A stretch of 38,252 nucleotides of DNA from Escherichia phage E212. The position numbers and the translations under genes are program-made. Below, piece after piece: positions 2,382 through 37,307 of the stretch. The DNA is taken from sequence record MZ043897.1, one strand, 5' to 3'. Position 1 is the stretch's first letter. Each line of letters opens with the position of its first letter. Below the pieces are notes generated by a model, which did no database searches, was not told where the DNA came from, and saw only the letters and a list, made by a program, of their open reading frames with translations.

Positions 2382-2654
2382 TCATCTTGCTGTCAGCTGT
2401 TTGGATTTCCTGTAGCCTGCCGCGTAAATGGCTACATTTGGAAGACAAGTTGAGCCTTCATATTTTCTGGTCAACGTTGTCAGTGTTATTACTTCTGCTC
2501 TCATTACTGGTTTGCGTTTGCATTGTAAGACCACTCGTGAAGGGGTTGGCCTGTGTAGCTTGTCAGAGCTGATCGCCTCCTGACTTTGCAGGTTTGCACG
2601 ACGAGCTCTACGGCGAGAAGCTGCGGTGCCTTTAAATTCTGTTTTTCTGGACAT
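2382..2654 (-). CDS. N-like transcription antiterminator (P22 gene 24-like)
   Basis: 90-aa ORF from the internal Met of track ORF 2382..2726; N-terminal arginine-rich motif (GTAASRRRARRA); C-terminal YAAGYRKSKQLTAR resembles P22 gp24; RBS GGGAGG 5 nt upstream. Confidence 0.7.
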   Translation of the reverse strand: MSRKTEFKGTAASRRRARRANLQSQEAISSDKLHRPTPSRVVLQCKRKPVMRAEVITLTTLTRKYEGSTCLPNVAIYAAGYRKSKQLTAR

Positions 2655-2679
2655 AGATTCCTCCCGAATAAACTTTGGC

Positions 2680-2727
2680 GATGCAATCTCGAAGCTCCTC
2701 CTGAGACGGTTGCTTCGGCATTGCATC
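2680..2727 (-). promoter_or_regulatory. Large imperfect inverted repeat in the N leader (candidate RNase III-type processing hairpin)
   Basis: GATGCAATCTCGAAGC ... GCTTCGGCATTGCATC, about 15-bp arms around a 16-nt loop, between the nutL-like site and the N RBS. Confidence 0.4.
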
Positions 2728-2752
2728 CCACAGCTTATATGGTTGGGTGATC

Positions 2753-2799
2753 TGGCTTTTCAGCCACGTAGTCGAGTGTTCGACGTTGTTTAAAGAGCC
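2753..2799 (-). promoter_or_regulatory. nutL candidate (boxA-like plus two hairpins, the second with a GAAAA-type loop)
   Basis: Transcript reads GGCUCUUUA-AACAAC-GUCGAACACUCGAC-UACG-UGGCUGAAAAGCCA; the same architecture recurs at the nutR candidate. Confidence 0.45.
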
Positions 2800-2844
2800 T
2801 GCCAGTCTGCTCCGTTTGGCTTACAGCGTCCTGCTGACGGTTAA

Positions 2845-2873
2845 ATAGTACGATATGTACTTTATTGGGTCAA
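2845..2873 (-). promoter_or_regulatory. pL candidate promoter
   Basis: Minus-strand TTGACC, 17-bp spacer, TACTAT, about 40 nt upstream of the boxA-like element; overlapped by a palindromic operator candidate. Confidence 0.4.
2847..2861. promoter_or_regulatory. oL operator candidate (AGTAC-N5-GTACT)
   Basis: AGTACGATATGTACT inverted repeat overlapping the pL -10 and spacer; related half-sites occur in the cI-cro intergenic region. Confidence 0.4.
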
Positions 2874-3060
2874 TACAATTTGTTCTAAAATGGGGTGATT
2901 TTTTATAACGCTTTGTATTTAATAGTGTTGTTTTTTAGCGTGGGTGTATCGCCTCGGCGATGTAAGGAGAGATCAGAATTGCGTGGTTTAGTGAGTTGTA
3001 TCTATTTATTTTTCAATAAATACATTTGGTTATGTGTCTTTAGGTGGGGGCGTGAGGCAA

Positions 3061-3086
3061 AGAAAACCCGGCTCGGTGGCCGGGTT
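3061..3086 (-). terminator. Intrinsic terminator candidate just downstream of the NYN-domain gene
   Basis: AACCCGGC/GCCGGGTT 8-bp stem with 6-nt loop; on the minus strand it is followed by UUUUCUUU. Confidence 0.45.
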
Positions 3087-3093
3087 GATGGGA

Positions 3094-3951
3094 TTATCGT
3101 TTATTTCTTTGATGTTTCTTTGCAGACTCAGCTTGAGTGTTTCCATACCTGCGTTTACCGCTATTGTTTTTTCCTCTAGGCTTGCCTTTTTTTCGATCTT
3201 CCCACCAGTCAGGTGCCGGGTCTGGCTCAACATGTAAAGCATCGGCAAGTCCTGATATCAAGCTGTATGACTGAACTCCATCAATGTGCTCTGACAGTGA
3301 TGGGGTAACATTCTGTCTTAGTGGATCAAGAATAAAATCAATACCTTTAATTCTGGCGTGTTTGGCGGCAGGCACAAAGTCTGAGTCCCCAGCAACAAGG
3401 ACAATTACATCAACAAGTTTTTCATAAGCTAAAGTCGTGATATCCATCCCTAGCTTGATATCAACTTGTTTTTGTTTGATGTCATAGTAAAAATCATCAT
3501 TTGTCAGTTCATCCCATTTTTTCGTTCCTTTCATCAGAGCATCAAGGGAGAATGTAGTTAGTTGCCATCGCTTATTATCAACAAGATTCCCTAATCTTAA
3601 GGCTGTTTTTCGAGTTTTTCTTAACTCTTCATGCAGCTCCGTTCTCAGAATATATGATTTTTCGAGTTTGAAATTCTTGCGACCAGGCGTCTTATTGCCA
3701 GGCTCAGGAAGTGGAAGGCGTGTTTGAATGTCGAGTGGTGGACAGTCATAGAAGTAAATTCTATAAAGCTCAAGCGGTTCCCTACGTTCTTGTGATTGAC
3801 GTTTTCCATTAAGATGGGAAAGAACCATTGACCATATTACTTTCATTATGCATTGCGCAGTCAGTTCATGCTCGGCGAAGTGTTTACGATGCGTAGCATG
3901 AACACGCTGCATGAAAAAACCCGCATCAATTAAAATTGCTGCTTTCTTCAT
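3094..3951 (-). CDS. NYN/LabA-like (PIN-like) domain protein with basic C-terminal tail; putative nuclease in the rexAB position
   Basis: 285-aa ORF; N-terminal AAILIDAGFF and downstream IVLVAGDSDFVPAAK motifs are typical of NYN/LabA-like domains; Lys/Arg-rich C-terminal 40 aa; immediately downstream of cI on the same strand. Confidence 0.6.
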   Translation of the reverse strand: MKKAAILIDAGFFMQRVHATHRKHFAEHELTAQCIMKVIWSMVLSHLNGKRQSQERREPLELYRIYFYDCPPLDIQTRLPLPEPGNKTPGRKNFKLEKSYILRTELHEELRKTRKTALRLGNLVDNKRWQLTTFSLDALMKGTKKWDELTNDDFYYDIKQKQVDIKLGMDITTLAYEKLVDVIVLVAGDSDFVPAAKHARIKGIDFILDPLRQNVTPSLSEHIDGVQSYSLISGLADALHVEPDPAPDWWEDRKKGKPRGKNNSGKRRYGNTQAESAKKHQRNKR

Positions 3952-3960
3952 AAGAGTCCC

Positions 3961-4022
3961 AAAAAAATAGCCCAGAGCCGTTATGCAGATATTAACAATT
4001 GTCTGCGAACGGGGCTGGGCTT
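3961..4022 (-). terminator. Long structured hairpin with U-tract between cI and the NYN gene (terminator or attenuator candidate)
   Basis: Minus-strand arms AGCCCAGCCCCGUU / AACGGCUCUGGGCU (12 pairs with a 2-nt internal loop) enclosing an inner hairpin GCAGA...UCUGC, followed by AUUUUUUU; sits 60 nt after the cI stop, and its U-tract ends 10 nt before the NYN start codon. Confidence 0.5.
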
Positions 4023-4078
4023 GGTTTAATTAATCTATGCCAAGTTGACTGTGCCGTCAACATAAAACTTACTTCCTA

Positions 4079-4738
4079 TCACCCAAACGTCTCTTCAGGC
4101 CACTGACTAGCGATAACTTTCCCCACAACGGAACAACTCTCATTGCATGGGATCATTGGGTATTGTGGGTTTAGTGGCTGTAGAAACACCTGACCGCTAT
4201 CCCTGATCAGTTTCTTGAAGGTAAACTCATCACCACCAAGTCTGGCTATACAGAAATCGCCTGGCTCAACAGCCTGCTCAGGGTCAACCAGAATTAACAT
4301 CCCGTCAGGAAAGCTGGGCTTGGATCCTGTTGGTGCGGTCATGGAATTACCTTCAACCTCAAGCCAGAATGCAGAGCCACTGGCTTTTTTGGTTGTGCTT
4401 ACCAATCTCTCCGCATCGCCTTTGGTAAAGGTTCTGAGTTCTGGAGAGAACATCCCAGCCTGAACATGAGAAAATACAGGGTACTCATATTGTTTTTTAA
4501 CTGGGGCCGATGAGTATTCGCCAACAGGTGAAAATGTCCCGTCGTGGTTGAATGATATGTTATCAATACCAAGGTATTTAAACACCACACCAATATCACT
4601 AAGAGATGGATGACGAGATCCGCGCAACCAGTGTCCAATCCCACCCTGCGTCATACCTAGCTCTTCGGCTAACTTCTCTTGAGTTATGCCGAGCTCTTTC
4701 ATTCTGGATCTAGCCAGTTCATACCATTTCATTTTCAT
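4079..4738 (-). CDS. cI: CI repressor, hybrid: novel N-terminal HTH domain fused to a lambda-cI-type C-terminal S24 (LexA-like) domain
   Basis: C-terminal about 135 aa ([13 protein letters not shown]...[12 protein letters not shown]) near-identical to lambda cI; N-terminal about 85 aa ([37 protein letters not shown]...) unrelated to lambda cI; start taken at the internal Met with RBS AAGGA. Confidence 0.9.
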
Positions 4739-4773
4739 GTCCTTATTATTACGCTCTGTACTGGAACCATCCA

Positions 4774-4820
4774 TGCACAATGTGTATTTTTGCTTGTATT
4801 TGGAAAGTACATATTGTATT
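4774..4820. promoter_or_regulatory. oR operator candidates in the cI-cro divergent region
   Basis: TGCACAATGTGTATT (4774-4788) and AGTACATATTGTATT (4806-4820) resemble the oL palindrome AGTACGATATGTACT; exact pR/pRM hexamers not resolved. Confidence 0.35.
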
Positions 4821-7492: not shown

Positions 7493-7933
7493 ATGAAAAA
7501 ACTAACCTTTGAAATTCGATCTCCAGCACATCAGCAAAACGCTATTCACGCAGTACAGCAAATCCTTCCAGACCCAACCAAACCAATCGTAGTAACCATT
7601 CAGGAGCGCAACCGCAGCTTAGACCAAAATCGGAAGCTTTGGGCTTGCCTTGGTGACGTTTCGCGTCAGGTTGAATGGCATGGTCGCTGGCTGGATGCAG
7701 AAAGCTGGAAGTGTGTGTTTACCGCAGCATTAAAGCAGCAGGATGTTGTTCCTAACCTTGCCGGGAATGGCTTTGTGGTAATAGGCCAGTCAACCAGCAG
7801 GATGCGTGTAAACGAATTTGCGGAGCTATTAGAGCTTATACAGGCATTCGGTACAGAGCGTGGCGTTAAGTGGTCAGACGAAGCGAGACTGGCTCTGGAG
7901 TGGAAAGCGAGATGGGGAGATCGGGCTGCATGA
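7493..7933 (+). CDS. ninB: NinB (Orf-family recombination protein)
   Basis: Starts MKKLTFEIRSPAHQQNAIHAVQQ..., matching lambda NinB; internal Met of track ORF 7475..7933. Confidence 0.9.
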   Translation: MKKLTFEIRSPAHQQNAIHAVQQILPDPTKPIVVTIQERNRSLDQNRKLWACLGDVSRQVEWHGRWLDAESWKCVFTAALKQQDVVPNLAGNGFVVIGQSTSRMRVNEFAELLELIQAFGTERGVKWSDEARLALEWKARWGDRAA

Positions 7934-8457
7934 CTATCAAATCAAATACGCCAGCACACGACAAGGACTGCTGGCAAACGCCGCTTTGGCTTTTTGATGC
8001 ACTGGATATTGAGTTTGGATTCTGGCTGGATTCGGCAGCGAGCGACAAAAATGCTCTGTGTGCTCACTGGCTAACTGAGGCCGACGACGCGCTCAATTCT
8101 GAGTGGGTAAGCCACGGTGCAATCTGGAATAACCCACCGTACAGCAATATCAGGCCGTGGGTGGAAAAAGCCGCTGAGCAGTGCATACAACAGCGACAGA
8201 CGGTAGTGATGCTTGTGCCAGAGGATATGTCAGTCGGATGGTTCAGCAAGGCTCTGGAGAGTGTCGACGAAGTTCGCATTATCACTGATGGACGGATTAA
8301 TTTTATCGAACCATCGACGGGGCTGGAGAAGAAGGGAAACAGCAAAGGCTCCATGCTGCTGATTTGGCGACCGTTCATCAGTCCTCGACGGATGTTTACT
8401 ACCGTATCCAAAGCGGCATTGATAGCGATCGGGCAGGGCGTCAGGAGGGCGGCATGA
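7930..8457 (+). CDS. Phage DNA N6-adenine methyltransferase (Dam-like)
   Basis: NPPY motif (WNNPPYS) and DKDCWQTP N-terminal motif typical of phage Dam-family methyltransferases; ATGA overlap with the ninB stop. Confidence 0.75.
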
Positions 8458-10567: not shown

Positions 10568-10752
10568 ACGCCACAATTCAAACGATACCAGAACTTCTTA
10601 TCCAGACACGAGGCAATCAGACCGAAGTGGCGAGGAGGCTTTCCTGTGCAAGAGGAACAGTGCTCAAGTACAACAGAGACAGCAAAGGCGAGCGTCACGC
10701 AATAGTTAACGGCGTCCTGATAGTCAAACAGGGCAAGAGGGGAAGACGATGA
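10564..10752 (+). CDS. ninH: NinH
   Basis: TIPELLIQTRGNQTEVARRLSCARGTVLKY matches lambda NinH. Confidence 0.8.
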   Translation: MNATIQTIPELLIQTRGNQTEVARRLSCARGTVLKYNRDSKGERHAIVNGVLIVKQGKRGRR

Positions 10753-11372
10753 GACTCGAAAGCGTAGCTAAATTTCATTCTCCAAAAAGCCCGATGATGA
10801 GCGACTCACCACGGGCTACAGCTTCTGACTCTCTTTCCGGTACTGATGTGATGGCTGCTATGGGGATGGCGCAATCACAAGCCGGATTCGGTATGGCTGC
10901 ATTCTGCGGTAAGCATGAACTCAGCCAGAACGACAAACAAAAGGCTATCAACTATCTGATGCAATTTGCACACAAGGTATCGGGGAAATACCGTGGTGTG
11001 GCAAAGCTTGAAGGAAATACTAAGGCAAAGGTACTGCAAGTGCTCGCAACATTCGCTTATGCGGATTATTGCCGTAGTGCCGCGACGCCGGGCGCAAGAT
11101 GCAGAGATTGCCACGGTACAGGCCGTGCGGTTGATATATCAAAAACAGAGCTGTGGGGGAGAGTTGTTGAGAAAGAATGCGGAAGATGCAAAGGTGTCGG
11201 CTATTCAAGAATGCCAGCAAGCGCCGCATATCGCGCTGTAACGATGCTAATCCCAAATCTTACCCAACCAACCTGGTCACGCACTGTTAAGCCGCTGTAT
11301 GACGCTCTGGTGGTGCAATGCCACAAAGAAGAGTCAATCGCAGACAACATTTTGAATGCGGTCACACGTTAA
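10749..11372 (+). CDS. Q: Late gene antiterminator Q (lambda-type)
   Basis: 207-aa ORF essentially identical to lambda Q (MRLESVAKFHSPKSPMMSDSPRATASDSLSGTD...). Confidence 0.95.
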   Translation: MRLESVAKFHSPKSPMMSDSPRATASDSLSGTDVMAAMGMAQSQAGFGMAAFCGKHELSQNDKQKAINYLMQFAHKVSGKYRGVAKLEGNTKAKVLQVLATFAYADYCRSAATPGARCRDCHGTGRAVDISKTELWGRVVEKECGRCKGVGYSRMPASAAYRAVTMLIPNLTQPTWSRTVKPLYDALVVQCHKEESIADNILNAVTR

Positions 11373-11414: not shown

Positions 11415-11443
11415 TTGACTTTTTGAATAAAGTTGGGTAAATT
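11415..11443 (+). promoter_or_regulatory. Late promoter pR' with overlapping qut site
   Basis: TTGACT, 17-bp spacer, TAAATT immediately downstream of Q, as in lambda. Confidence 0.8.
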
Positions 11444-11449
11444 TGACTC

Positions 11450-11642
11450 AACGATGGGTTAATTCGCTCGTTGTGGTAGTGAGATGAAAAGAGGCGGCGC
11501 TTACTACCGATTCCGCCTAGTTGGTCACTTCGACGTATCGTCTGGAACTCCAACCATCGCAGGCAGAGAGGTCTGCAAAATGCAATCCCGAAACAGTTCG
11601 CAGGTAATAGTTAGAGCCTGCATAACGGTTTCGGGATTTTTT
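11450..11642 (+). ncRNA. Short pR'-initiated leader transcript (lambda 6S RNA equivalent) ending at tR'
   Basis: About 190 nt between the pR' start and the tR' hairpin, no ORF, arrangement as in lambda. Confidence 0.55.
11587..11642 (+). terminator. tR' intrinsic terminator
   Basis: CCCGAAAC ... GTTTCGGG long hairpin followed by ATTTTTTAT. Confidence 0.8.
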
Positions 11643-12084
11643 ATATCTGCACAACAGGTAAGAGCATTGAACCCGCAGACCTCGCGGAATTGGTGAAAGG
11701 TGCCGCGCAGTGCTCTTATCGTTGTGGTGAATGCACAGGCTGATGTGTAAGGGCAAGAATCTTTCGCTGGATTCGGTGTGGCCACGTAGCCCGCTGTAGG
11801 CAGTTGCAGCAAACCGGAGATCAGCACCGGTCGCCACAATCCAAACTGAGCCGTAGCCACTGGCTATCCTGAATTCATCAGTGATAGTTACGCTGCGGCC
11901 TTCTACACATGATCTTCGTGAAAGCGGGCGGCATGAGGTTGCGCTAACAACCTCATGCCGTTTTGCCCGTGCATATCGGTCACGAACAAATCTGATTACT
12001 AAACACAGTAGCCTGGATTTGTTCTATCAGTAATCGACCTTATTCCTAATTAAATAGAGCAAATCCCCTTATTGGGGGTAAGAC

Positions 12085-12408
12085 ATGAAGATGCCAGAAA
12101 AACATGACCTGTTAGCCGCCATTCTCGCGGCAAAGGAACAAGGCATCGGGGCAATCCTTGCGTTTGCAATGGCGTACCTTCGCGGCAGATATAATGGCGG
12201 TGCGTTTACAAAAACAGTAATCGACGCAACGATGTGCGCCATTATCGCCTGGTTCATTCGTGACCTTCTCGACTTCGCCGGACTAAGTAGCAATCTCGCT
12301 TATATAACGAGCGTGTTCATCGGCTACATCGGTACTGACTCGATTGGTTCGCTTATCAAACGCTTCGCTGCTAAAAAAGCCGGAGTAGAAGATGGTGGAA
12401 ATCAATAA
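12085..12408 (+). CDS. S: Holin S (lambda-type, dual-start motif MKMPEK)
   Basis: 107-aa ORF matching lambda S107. Confidence 0.95.
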
Positions 12409-35428: not shown

Positions 35429-35773
35429 TTAGTCCTTGCGTAGCTCGCTGATTCTTCTGTAAGTCTCTGGTGCTTTGTTCCCGTACGTCTTCATTTCAGA
35501 CTTCAACAGAGCAACGAGTGAATCCCATTCGTTGAGGATTCCTTTGAATGCCGGAACGCGCTTTGCAACCTTGTCGAATGAATCTCTGATTTCTGGAATC
35601 TGCTCAACAAGTGCAACGCATCGCCGGAAATCGGCTGCGTCATGTGGAGCGCCGAAGTGATGACCATAGATATTCTTTTTCAGTCCACACGCGATTGAGG
35701 CAAGAGTTGCGCTACTGATGCCGACATCGCCAGTTGATTGCCATTTCAAAACCTTCATAGCCAAATCTGACAT
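35429..35773 (-). CDS. Hypothetical early protein (114 aa)
   Basis: Start at the internal Met with RBS GGAG; an alternative upstream ATG at 35800 overlaps the stop of the preceding small ORF. Confidence 0.5.
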   Translation of the reverse strand: MSDLAMKVLKWQSTGDVGISSATLASIACGLKKNIYGHHFGAPHDAADFRRCVALVEQIPEIRDSFDKVAKRVPAFKGILNEWDSLVALLKSEMKTYGNKAPETYRRISELRKD

Positions 35774-35799
35774 TTCTTGTCTCCAATAAAAAACCGCCA

Positions 35800-35967
35800 T
35801 CAGGCGTCTTGGTGTTCTTTCAGTTCTTCAATTCGAATATTGGTTACGTCTGCATGCGCTATCTGCGCCCATATCATCCAGTGGTTATAGCAGTCGTTGA
35901 TGTCCTCTGCTTCGATAACCCTGTCGAATGGCTCTCCATTCCATTCACCTGTGACTCGGAAGTGCAT
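35800..35967 (-). CDS. Hypothetical small protein (55 aa)
   Basis: ORF MHFRVTGEWNGEPFDRVIEAEDINDCYNHW... with RBS GGAG 7 nt upstream. Confidence 0.4.
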   Translation of the reverse strand: MHFRVTGEWNGEPFDRVIEAEDINDCYNHWMIWAQIAHADVTNIRIEELKEHQDA

Positions 35968-35980
35968 TTATCATCTCCAT

Positions 35981-36003
35981 AAAACAAAACTCGCCGTAGC
36001 GAG
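35981..36003 (-). terminator. Intercistronic terminator-like hairpin in the leftward early operon
   Basis: Minus strand CUCGC-UACG-GCGAG followed by UUUUGUUUU. Confidence 0.4.
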
Positions 36004-36068
36004 TTCAGATAAAAGAAATCCCCGCGAGTGCGAGGATTGTTAGTTGCGCTCTGCTGCTGCCTTAGCCA

Positions 36069-36155
36069 TTACCATATCCACCAAACTTCACCAGACATGA
36101 TTCTCGCAATCACTATCATCACCAAAGTGATAATCACAACTTTAACTGGCGGCAT
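36069..36155 (-). CDS. 28-aa hydrophobic peptide (putative small membrane peptide)
   Basis: MPPVKVVIITLVMIVIARIMSGEVWWIW; its ATG overlaps the stop of the upstream 232-aa ORF (TGATG); below the ORF-track cutoff. Confidence 0.3.
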   Translation of the reverse strand: MPPVKVVIITLVMIVIARIMSGEVWWIW

Positions 36156-36853
36156 CATTCACCATCCTGCTGCGGTTCTGCTGGATATGCTTTTCTCATC
36201 CAATGCGTGGCGTCATGAATAACGAACTGATATTCATCATCAGTAAACATCGAGCCATCCCACTGTAGCCCGTCAATAACGCCTCTGGATGGAGAGAATA
36301 CCCAGATATCGAAATCGTATTTCTCCGGCATTCGCTCACTACAGCTTATCCAGCCATCCGGAGTTACCGGAGAATTGCCATTTACCAAGTCAGCTCGAAC
36401 ATATAGCGTGTCATCATGGTGCTGATTGTGGCTGCACCACGTTAATTCGCTTAACTCGCCATCTTCTGGCCATACTCCAGCTGTTTGCAGCCAGATATGG
36501 GCTGGCGCATCTTGGCAAGGTGTATTAACTGGCAACTTGTAAGTTTGGCTTACAGGTTGGCTACCCTGAAGCATGGCAGCGTGGCAGGCATCCTCTACGC
36601 CCTTTACTGCATCTGCGCAGTAGTTATAGCGATTGCATTCCACTAACTTCTGCTTGAGATTTTCAATTGCTTGCGCGACATCAGCCTGTATTTCCGGAAA
36701 TGGCGGTTCTGCCCGGCCTTTCCAGCCTTCCCACATGGCAGCCATCATCACGAACCAAGCGTTTCCACAGCCATCTTTTTTGTTATCAAAGAACCAGTCA
36801 GCGAACTCTAGGCTCATGCCATTTTGTTCTGCTATTTCATATCGATTATCCAT
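36155..36853 (-). CDS. Hypothetical early protein (232 aa)
   Basis: Long ORF in the leftward operon; Trp/Cys-rich; start overlaps the stop of the upstream ORF. Confidence 0.55.
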   Translation of the reverse strand: MDNRYEIAEQNGMSLEFADWFFDNKKDGCGNAWFVMMAAMWEGWKGRAEPPFPEIQADVAQAIENLKQKLVECNRYNYCADAVKGVEDACHAAMLQGSQPVSQTYKLPVNTPCQDAPAHIWLQTAGVWPEDGELSELTWCSHNQHHDDTLYVRADLVNGNSPVTPDGWISCSERMPEKYDFDIWVFSPSRGVIDGLQWDGSMFTDDEYQFVIHDATHWMRKAYPAEPQQDGE

Positions 36854-37307
36854 TGTTCTCCTCCTTGTTTAGCATGGCGGCGCGGCAGGCGTTCCATATT
36901 TCGGCAGCAATATCGCGCTCGCTATCGGTTAATTTGTACGTGGAAACATAGCCAGAGAGCATTTCTACGTTTTCCGGAGTTGCTTCTTCCGGCACTACCG
37001 GCGCTGGCAAGGCAGCGTGATAGTAGAGTGGCATAGTTTTGTACAGTGGTTCGCCAGGACTTCCGTCAACCTGATTCCATTCTTCAACCCAGGCATCAAC
37101 AACCGCTTTGCTGGTTGATACATGTTCTTCTGAATCTACATTTTGTCCTGATATACAGAACATAACTGCCTCTGCTTCCAGCGATTCCAGAGCAATTCGT
37201 GCCAGTTCTTCCGCTTCTTCTGCTGGCAGTACAACGTTGCTACCAGGTCCGTATGTTTCGCGCCACTGCTTGATTGTCAGCAGTCGCTCTTTGGTAATAG
37301 TGGTCAT
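36846..37307 (-). CDS. Hypothetical early protein (153 aa)
   Basis: ORF with ATGA-type overlap to the upstream gene; acidic. Confidence 0.5.
   Translation of the reverse strand: MTTITKERLLTIKQWRETYGPGSNVVLPAEEAEELARIALESLEAEAVMFCISGQNVDSEEHVSTSKAVVDAWVEEWNQVDGSPGEPLYKTMPLYYHAALPAPVVPEEATPENVEMLSGYVSTYKLTDSERDIAAEIWNACRAAMLNKEENNG

Follow-up and report, generated by a model that had tools for sequence, protein, structure and literature searches.

A predicted NYN ribonuclease gene with a conserved terminator-hairpin leader, kin to lambda tR', in the rexAB slot of Escherichia phage E212

A cassette with its own promoter in the rexAB slot

The region between cI and N is known as a mosaic hotspot, the site of RexAB in lambda and of BstA in BTP1 (PMC8585504). 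What does it carry in Escherichia phage E212, and how would that cargo be expressed? In the 38,252 nucleotides (nt) of this phage that we analysed (MZ043897.1; hereafter the window), it holds an ATG-initiated open reading frame (ORF) of 285 amino acids (aa) for a NYN-domain protein, a predicted metal-dependent endoribonuclease (3094..3951, minus strand). An earlier note, made from the sequence alone, had placed this ORF in the slot of rexAB as a single gene, comparable to the lysogen-expressed genes that lambdoid prophages commonly have there. The ORF is real, lies downstream of cI on the same strand as stated, and contains both NYN motifs that had been pointed out (AAILIDAGFF, residues 4-13, and IVLVAGDSDFVPAAK, residues 183-197); the rexAB slot is also correct, down to the base. 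As to expression, the gene does not simply share the cI transcript in the manner of rexAB: a hairpin followed by a U7 tract (-25 kcal/mol, z -5.6) intervenes between cI and the gene, which has its own promoter. Nor is the unit a single gene, as a conserved structured leader RNA always accompanies it.

The cassette has its predicted sigma-70 promoter at 4032..4060 (minus strand; consensus scan), with the -35 element TTGACG (4060-4055), a 17-nt spacer and the -10 element TAGATT (4037-4032). Transcription is predicted to start near 4025, about 4 nt before a leader hairpin of 53 nt (3969..4021, minus strand) made of three helices: P1 of 7 bp, an internal loop, P2 of 5 bp, a bulge, P3 of 5 bp and a 12-nt loop. 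Its minimum free energy is -25 kcal/mol (z -5.56), and none of 200 shuffled sequences was equally stable. The U7 tract, read directly from the sequence (3961..3967, minus strand), completes an intrinsic terminator, and hairpin and U7 together (4021-3961) end 10 nt before the ATG at 3951, with a weak Shine-Dalgarno sequence, GGGA, at 3960-3957. A promoter between hairpin and ATG was considered and rejected, as inspection revealed no acceptable -35/-10 combination in a gap that is too short; indeed, there is no room for a second promoter because only 8-27 nt separate the T-run from the ATG across the groups studied. Pairing of the hairpin loop with NYN codons 5-9 was also rejected (cognate duplexes -4.6 versus non-cognate -4.05, with scattered ranks). 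The leader had no match beyond noise in Rfam 15 at E <= 10, and at gathering scores neither the complete window nor any of 10 loci had one, whichever leader variant they contain. Our simple terminator scanner admits loops of 3-8 nt only and missed both this hairpin and the related one described below.

A palindrome, TTGACGGCACAGTCAA (4045..4060, either strand), overlaps the -35 element and is a candidate operator that could serve autoregulation. The pattern TTGAC-N6/8/9-GTCAA, with at most one mismatch, occurs in about 17 of 30 loci, versus 48 of 2000 shuffled upstream regions (2.4%), and the palindrome covers the -35 element at the same position in, for example, loci L071, L069, L219, L029 and L040, and also in Shewanella.

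The cassette as a whole, leader plus NYN ORF, is a replaceable moron of 3091..4077 (minus strand), delimited by breakpoints, by the replacement of rexB-rexA and by GC content (0.38-0.41 versus 0.43-0.48 in the flanks). Compared with a Stx1 phage and phages ev017 and 2G7b, the breakpoints fall at about 3086-3090 and 4078-4081, and the same flanks enclose other cargo: DUF1828 with a 185-aa protein in ev017, an unknown 283-aa protein in 2G7b and the 173-aa ORF b63 in the Stx1 phage. The cassette is also found in E. coli prophages whose cI is 98% identical to that of lambda. There, homology to lambda breaks at 35826, the stop codon of rexB, and returns at 37223, 4 nt before the stop codon of cI. 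Because homology stops and resumes at these points, the 988-bp cassette is, by alignment, an allele that takes exactly the place of rexB, rexA and the spacer between cI and rexA (lambda 35827-37222).

Directly upstream of the cassette is the cI repressor gene (4079..4780, minus strand; a helix-turn-helix (HTH) and an S24 peptidase domain by Pfam), whose product has a C-terminal domain identical to that of lambda-type cI; the 127-nt spacer between cI and the NYN gene is part of the cassette. On the other side, a tIMM-like terminator (3065..3086, minus strand; terminator scan, fold of -14.5 kcal/mol) is common with lambda, where it lies just after rexB. Window positions 2967-3086 are 88% identical to lambda 35708-35826, and the terminator (3086-3065) is, by this homology, conserved lambda-like flank and not cassette. 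A PL-like promoter (2845..2873, minus strand; promoter scan) and the N gene that follows it (2382..2726, minus strand; N peptide by Pfam, 1.5e-32) complete the region. No tandem repeats were found at 2700-4200 and no meaningful repeats flank the cassette. Comparison of window 3091-4077 with loci L001, L002 and L003 marks the slot between cI and OL as a cargo hotspot with identical junctions.

Position is thus what the cassette has in common with RexA/RexB, both being prophage accessory cargo beside the repressor, exchanged base for base in the stretch from the stop codon of cI to the tIMM region, between cI and OL/PL. There is no relation to RexA or RexB in sequence or fold, and the only Pfam and PHROG matches of the cassette ORF are NYN and PHROG 5783. 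RexAB is a two-gene system, a sensor and a membrane protein, co-transcribed with cI, whereas the cassette encodes one protein, a predicted nuclease, behind its own promoter and leader terminator.

A conserved leader RNA of the tR' family

Is the hairpin a peculiarity of this phage or part of the design of the gene? We took 79 viral loci, with proteins that share 100-40% identity with the query, and obtained 47 distinct upstream sequences from them; a hairpin with a T-run stands shortly before the start codon in all 47, and a near-consensus promoter precedes it at the same distance in all proteobacterial groups. In an almost gapless covariation alignment of 18 distinct leaders, standard pairs fill 97.1% of cells, versus 83.8% in shuffles and 25-44% with slid partners. 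Compensatory double changes occur at 12 of the 17 pairs, and RNAalifold independently predicts the same three helices. G-U pairs are restricted to the gene-sense strand, which argues for an RNA rather than a DNA cruciform. Conservation extends beyond the stem, with the loop A...UUA and a bulged C invariant or nearly so. In the P22-like Proteus phage Brookers, the protein is 74% and the coding sequence 67% identical to those of E212, and 53 of 57 bases are identical in the leader hairpin region, where a C-G pair is swapped for U-A. On such alignments, the hairpin is conserved more strongly than the NYN coding sequence.

The layout of promoter, hairpin, T-run and ORF is found in enteric, Pasteurellaceae-like and Pseudomonas-like groups and in Shewanella, Burkholderia, Streptococcus and Dorea phages. 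Streptococcus phage Javan85 has the promoter TTGACA-17-TAAAAT and the Dorea phage a TATAAT-type -10 element at the same position. A clade at 40-43% identity (L074-L090) has a TAnnTTTG-like promoter motif and a longer hairpin with covariation of its own; from this motif and the gut-metagenome source of the sequences, we take the clade to be Bacteroidota. Among unselected distant representatives of the family, five of six have a two-tier hairpin (-21 to -34 kcal/mol) with a T-run 6-27 nt before the ATG, and a covariance model found the leader of a Pseudomonas aeruginosa locus resembling a plasmid or integrative and conjugative element (ICE) blind, with 58 bits. As predicted from these sequences, the promoter-hairpin-terminator-ORF design recurs down to 40% identity, in several phyla and mobile-element slots.

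The sequence of the hairpin is not the same throughout. A second leader type, 20-80 nt upstream of the NYN start, is common to the non-enteric loci L006 (phiE202), L007 (Javan85), L008 (the Dorea phage), L222, L225, L226 and L227. It has an outer G/C helix, an internal loop with 5' (A/G)GUA facing 3' GAA(A/C), an inner helix and an AUAAUCC-like loop of about 7 nt; we take its AGUA/GAA to be the loop-E, or sarcin-ricin, bulged-G consensus. The third type is that of the L074-L090 clade (alignment A4), which precedes the NYN homologue by about 40-130 nt and equally has no match in Rfam. Two of its helices are conserved, with compensatory changes at four pairs; the internal loops are symmetric (CNAC), the motifs GAAAGC and AUAAUGG are present, and the inner hairpin varies.

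The covariance model of the leader hairpin, R1, found one additional full-length match in the window, absent from its training set, with 58.2 bits (E 2e-14; 11575-11650, plus strand). This second member of the family is the late terminator tR' (11585..11643, plus strand; hairpin at 11585-11637 followed by a T-run), placed between Q (10749-11372) and the holin gene S (12085-12408) of the holin, endolysin and Rz genes. Lambda (NC_001416) has an identical R1 match at 44712-44787, with the element at 44721-44781. A PR'-type promoter lies upstream in both (lambda 44552-44580, window 11415-11443), and the T-run of tR' ends about 194 nt after the predicted PR' start, which is the length of lambda 6S RNA, an RNA that ends at tR'. 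With R1, scores are 65-89 bits for NYN leaders and 58 bits for lambda tR', but at most 19 bits for the controls (AgvB, AsxR, the late region of Stx2 phage Sp5 and other terminators); an assignment of the AgvB and AsxR 'anti-sRNAs' (anti-small RNAs) to the same hairpin family was rejected on these scores. NYN leaders and tR' have in common a GUUCGCAG..AAU.GUUA..CUGCAUAACGG core, the three-helix shape and the U-tract, and the loop nucleotides conserved in NYN leaders are conserved in tR' too. By covariance model, the hairpins of lambda tR' and of the NYN leaders are therefore one RNA family.

How the two contexts are related in time can be approached from their diversity. When viral contigs were scanned with a pattern, 120 loci emerged, 89 of them of a nearly invariant tR' type in lambda late context, ending the 194-nt PR' transcript before the lysis genes, and 28 of the NYN-leader type followed by a NYN gene. 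As NYN leaders are diverse and tR' is nearly clonal, we tentatively take the NYN context to be the older of the two. The scan also gave L099, a decayed NYN gene with its leader (see below), and two loci of other kinds: in L115, a tR'-type hairpin is followed by tRNA genes, and in L182 (3555-3630), a hairpin of NYN-leader type serves as late terminator without a NYN gene, tRNA, holin, endolysin and Rz genes following it. L182 suggests that hairpins have been exchanged between the NYN and late-terminator contexts. The idea that lambda tR' is the relic of a deleted NYN gene found no support, hmmsearch of the six frames of 11631-12100 being empty, a result that an old deletion would also give. A rule by which the late terminator of a NYN phage matches its own leader was also rejected, since Brookers has the NYN-linked copy only and the late region of Sp5 has no match.

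The predicted nuclease and its genomic contexts

Profile search and structure prediction bear out the NYN/LabA-type fold that the earlier note had read from two motifs. Pfam NYN (PF01936) matches with 36.8 bits against a gathering score of 24.2, in an alignment that covers residues 158-205 only, and an AlphaFold2 model built with 34 homologues (predicted local distance difference test score 87.5, predicted template modelling score 0.79; weak at residues 51-54 and in the tail) has the predicted three-layer NYN/PIN-like fold. The acidic residues expected to bind metal, an Asp after strand 1, a D..D helix and GDxD, are conserved. Because eight residues are invariant across the 34 sequences (D9, D69, D164, D170, D189, D191, H222 and D224), the protein is likely to be an active enzyme, and its fold, conserved residues and family point to an endoribonuclease of the NYN (PIN-like) class that depends on Mg2+/Mn2+. 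The NYN enzymes characterised to date cleave single-stranded RNA as metal-dependent endonucleases (PMC11346440). Compared with known NYN/LabA structures (Marf1 NYN, 5yaa; VPA0982, 2qip) and with CRISPR-associated NYN, the protein has an additional structured insertion of about 100 residues, placed between the N-terminal strand and GDSDF, and an invariant H222-x-D224; enteric members add a WW motif and a disordered basic tail. The note had also stressed this tail. It is present, with 14 K/R and 4 D/E among the last 38 residues, but it is no feature of the family: among the 34 homologues, in the model and in the profile search, its sequence varies, many members do without it and it is predicted to be disordered.

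As had been anticipated, the protein matches no named system. The full-length match is PHROG 5783, 'unknown function' (1.5e-119); membership in the NCBIfam NYN family TIGR00288 failed, with 29.6 bits against an equivalog cut-off of 178.45; and no model of an anti-phage system protein in PADLOC-DB v2 matched significantly at full length, the best matches, HEC-09 (2e-4) and NYN PDLC01154 (1.4e-3), each covering about 45 residues of the catalytic core only. No sequence relative was found in the PDB at E <= 1. RefSeq phage records already annotate the gene as 'NYN domain-containing protein'. The family is large, with 422 clusters at 50% identity in an exhaustive profile search (E <= 1e-30), nearly all of them single-domain proteins of 210-290 aa.

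Identical NYN proteins are encoded by 48 Stx2a-converting phages and by phages 2B8, ev099 and EC.P3, and at least 80% of the cassette is present in 74 of 5426 complete E. coli genomes. About 200 further E. coli genomes, mostly O157:H7, contain the leader and a truncated gene in prophage Sp1/CP-933H. In O157:H7 Sakai (NC_002695, 301423-301939; Sp1, ECs_0273), an intact leader of 87.7 bits precedes a 129-aa N-terminal fragment of the NYN protein. This leader (301817-301892, minus strand) is not in Table S2 of PMC4104026, which reports Hfq-bound sRNAs as a list limited to peaks more than 100 nt from a gene (PMC7547250). The truncated copies, with L010 and L093, follow a cI of lambda type; the prophage around them is defective and adjoins thrW/proA. 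The gene has also decayed in an AU5Stx1-like allele (L099), by a T6-to-T5 frameshift and an internal deletion, and in GPEC1042, where it is split; the leader is intact in all three of these independent alleles, the pattern expected from a toxin/antidote pair. The T6 homopolymer of the window lies at 3914-3919, early in the ORF (codons 11-13, GFF), and may be a slippage-prone site of inactivation.

The cassette is not confined to the rexAB slot. The gene upstream encodes a cI-type S24/HTH repressor, of several families, in 16 of 30 distinct cases. In a group at 57% protein identity (L040-L050, L068, L081 and L085; for example L040 2919-3864), the cassette lies between Q and holin S, facing against late transcription, in the slot that holds stx in Stx phages; this location helps explain how the NYN and tR' contexts could swap hairpins. 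Elsewhere, it adjoins integrases or serine recombinases (phiE202, Javan85, Shewanella) and toxin-antitoxin (TA) pairs (phiE202, and HigBA in Pseudomonas), and in L222 (2501-5714) a distant member is immediately followed by the type I-F genes csy1-csy2-csy3 and has a similar hairpin and T-run before it. As judged from neighbouring genes, all of these positions are accessory sites on mobile elements, where defence and addiction genes gather.

Overall, the window matches Escherichia phage EC.P3, a mosaic of P22-like morphogenesis genes and lambda-like regulatory regions. In its nin region (7870-8457, plus strand), a 195-aa ORF contains IWNNPPYS, an NPPY motif such as N6-adenine DNA methyltransferases typically have.

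How the cassette may work

We tentatively favour the view that the cassette is an autonomous moron in which a toxic NYN ribonuclease is throttled by RNA and used for phage exclusion, and we rate its chance a little short of even. The sigma-70 promoter would fire about 4 nt before the 53-nt hairpin and U7 terminator, and from the layout most transcripts would end there as a leader RNA of about 64 nt, only read-through transcripts reaching the weak ribosome-binding site and the NYN ORF, to end at the tIMM-like flank terminator. As there is no space for an alternative antiterminator structure, read-through would be a constant leak or be set by a trans-acting factor. Design and context suggest that the ribonuclease would be harmful if over-made; through attenuation the leader would keep its level down, and it may in addition neutralise the protein by binding to it, like toxI with ToxN or RCd22 with AbiF. 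A second phage infecting the cell would disturb this state, either because the short-lived RNA is lost or because read-through increases; RNA cleavage would follow, with exclusion or abortion of the incoming phage to the benefit of the lysogen. Such an exclusion or abortive-infection role fits the neighbourhoods of the cassette: lysogeny modules, the Q-S slot, TA pairs, integrases and CRISPR-Cas. By analogy, the leader RNA may bind the NYN protein, as is favoured by the cassette design, by conservation beyond the stem and by the retention of leaders in decayed alleles. Weighing against this part of the proposal, the same hairpin works as a plain late terminator.

That observation leads to an explanation that we consider possible although on the unlikely side, in which the hairpin is only a strong terminator of the tR' family, without any trans or protein-binding role, in a plain insulated moron. 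It would end the upstream transcript, for instance that of cI, and throttle a constitutive promoter, keeping the NYN protein low and constant whatever its function. Indeed, the same hairpin family serves as lambda tR' without a NYN gene, in L182 the NYN-type hairpin itself takes the place of the late terminator, tR' conserves the same loop nucleotides as the leaders, and no antitoxin-like repeats were found. Simple insulation accounts less easily for a promoter kept directly before a terminator in three promoter dialects, with no room for alternative structure and even where there is no upstream operon to terminate, for three unrelated hairpin sequence types that retain one design, or for a hairpin better conserved than the NYN coding sequence. 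A coupling of the gene to the repressor as in rexAB, the NYN ORF being the second cistron of the PRM/PRE-cI transcript with a level proportional to cI, appears very improbable: the same strand, the exact rexAB position 127 nt past cI and some likely read-through from PRM are set against a -25 kcal/mol hairpin with U7 between cI and the ATG, a promoter belonging to the cassette, and the same cassette in slots unrelated to cI.

Alternatively, the protein could be an RNA-processing or regulatory factor that serves its carrier element rather than an anti-phage effector, for example by trimming or destroying tR'-type short transcripts or late-leader RNA, or by modulating host mRNAs in lysogeny, in line with the regulatory role proposed for LabA-like proteins. 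The leader and lambda tR' are one RNA family and this phage has both, short RNAs from PR' to tR' can be functional sRNAs (StxS, PMC7547250), and CRISPR-associated NYN acts in RNA maturation (PMC11346440). However, the P22-like Proteus phage has the NYN leader and no related late terminator, and the late region of Sp5, a stand-in for the NYN-carrying Stx2a phages that were themselves outside the scan, scores at most 19 bits. Also, the gene is dispensable, as phages of the same immunity hold other cargo and many alleles are decayed, and it occurs on plasmid/ICE-like DNA and beside CRISPR-Cas without a phage late operon. We regard this alternative as rather improbable.

The throttled-nuclease reading has published parallels. 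Type III TA systems (ToxIN, CptIN, TenpIN) have the same order of promoter, RNA, intrinsic terminator and endoribonuclease gene, the nuclease being a prediction in our case, an order by which RNA would be in excess over nuclease; they are abortive-infection modules borne by mobile elements (PMC8860590). The fold of their toxins is that of ToxN/CptN/TenpN, here it is NYN, and where they have tandem processed repeats, the cassette has one hairpin, which also forms the terminator. Among published systems, the nearest in function is AbiF (Abi_2)/RCd22 of a Clostridioides difficile prophage, a precedent for a prophage abortive-infection nuclease under an upstream terminator-bearing non-coding RNA: RCd22 lowers AbiF expression by termination and neutralises the toxic AbiF by direct binding (PMC12373285). 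In both cases a structured RNA precedes a prophage effector, but AbiF is a HEPN-like Abi_2 protein and the effector here a predicted NYN nuclease, and the RNA motifs differ. By analogy, then, the cassette would work like a type III TA or AbiF-RCd22 module, yet it is a member of neither, having a different toxin fold and no repeats. BstA of the Salmonella prophage BTP1 is another single abortive-infection protein directly downstream of a repressor, with a short 5' cis element, aba, that gives self-immunity (PMC8585504). Unlike the NYN leader, with its RNA-type covariation and G-U pairs, aba is apparently DNA-based and overlaps the start of its gene, and BstA is not a NYN protein.

A bolder version of the same idea, which we judge unlikely, is a widespread two-component module in which the NYN ribonuclease has the terminator-hairpin RNA as its specific partner, be it antidote, sensor or substrate mimic, and the tR'/6S hairpin is kin to that RNA. 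If this were true, either the nuclease recognises lambdoid late-leader hairpins or the late terminator of lambda descends from such a cassette, and RNA-antitoxin-type immunity would gain a new toxin fold and a new RNA class tied to a much-studied terminator.

Searching the literature for NYN with prophages, defence, abortive infection or antitoxin RNA, we found no description of the family or of its leader, subscription journals being mostly outside the search. Three points appear to be new: the exact rexAB equivalence, the universal covarying leader RNA outside Rfam, and the kinship of this leader with lambda tR'. Hitherto unannotated, the structured leader RNA covaries strongly and has at least three sequence types over several phyla, and should it control the nuclease directly, the RNA-antitoxin principle would reach the NYN/PIN-like fold. 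Its homology with tR', an element studied so thoroughly, comes as a surprise and offers a concrete, testable hypothesis on 6S RNA, the function of which is, to our knowledge, still unknown. RexAB, as far as we know, was the first abortive-infection system to be described and is still poorly understood, with the lambdoid cI-N slot as its historical home. An RNA-plus-nuclease cassette at the very junctions of RexAB is a tractable one-protein alternative in the same genetic background. Because it is found in 48 Stx2a-converting phages, in coliphages and in about 200 O157:H7 remnants, this cassette could affect phage traffic among pathogenic E. coli.

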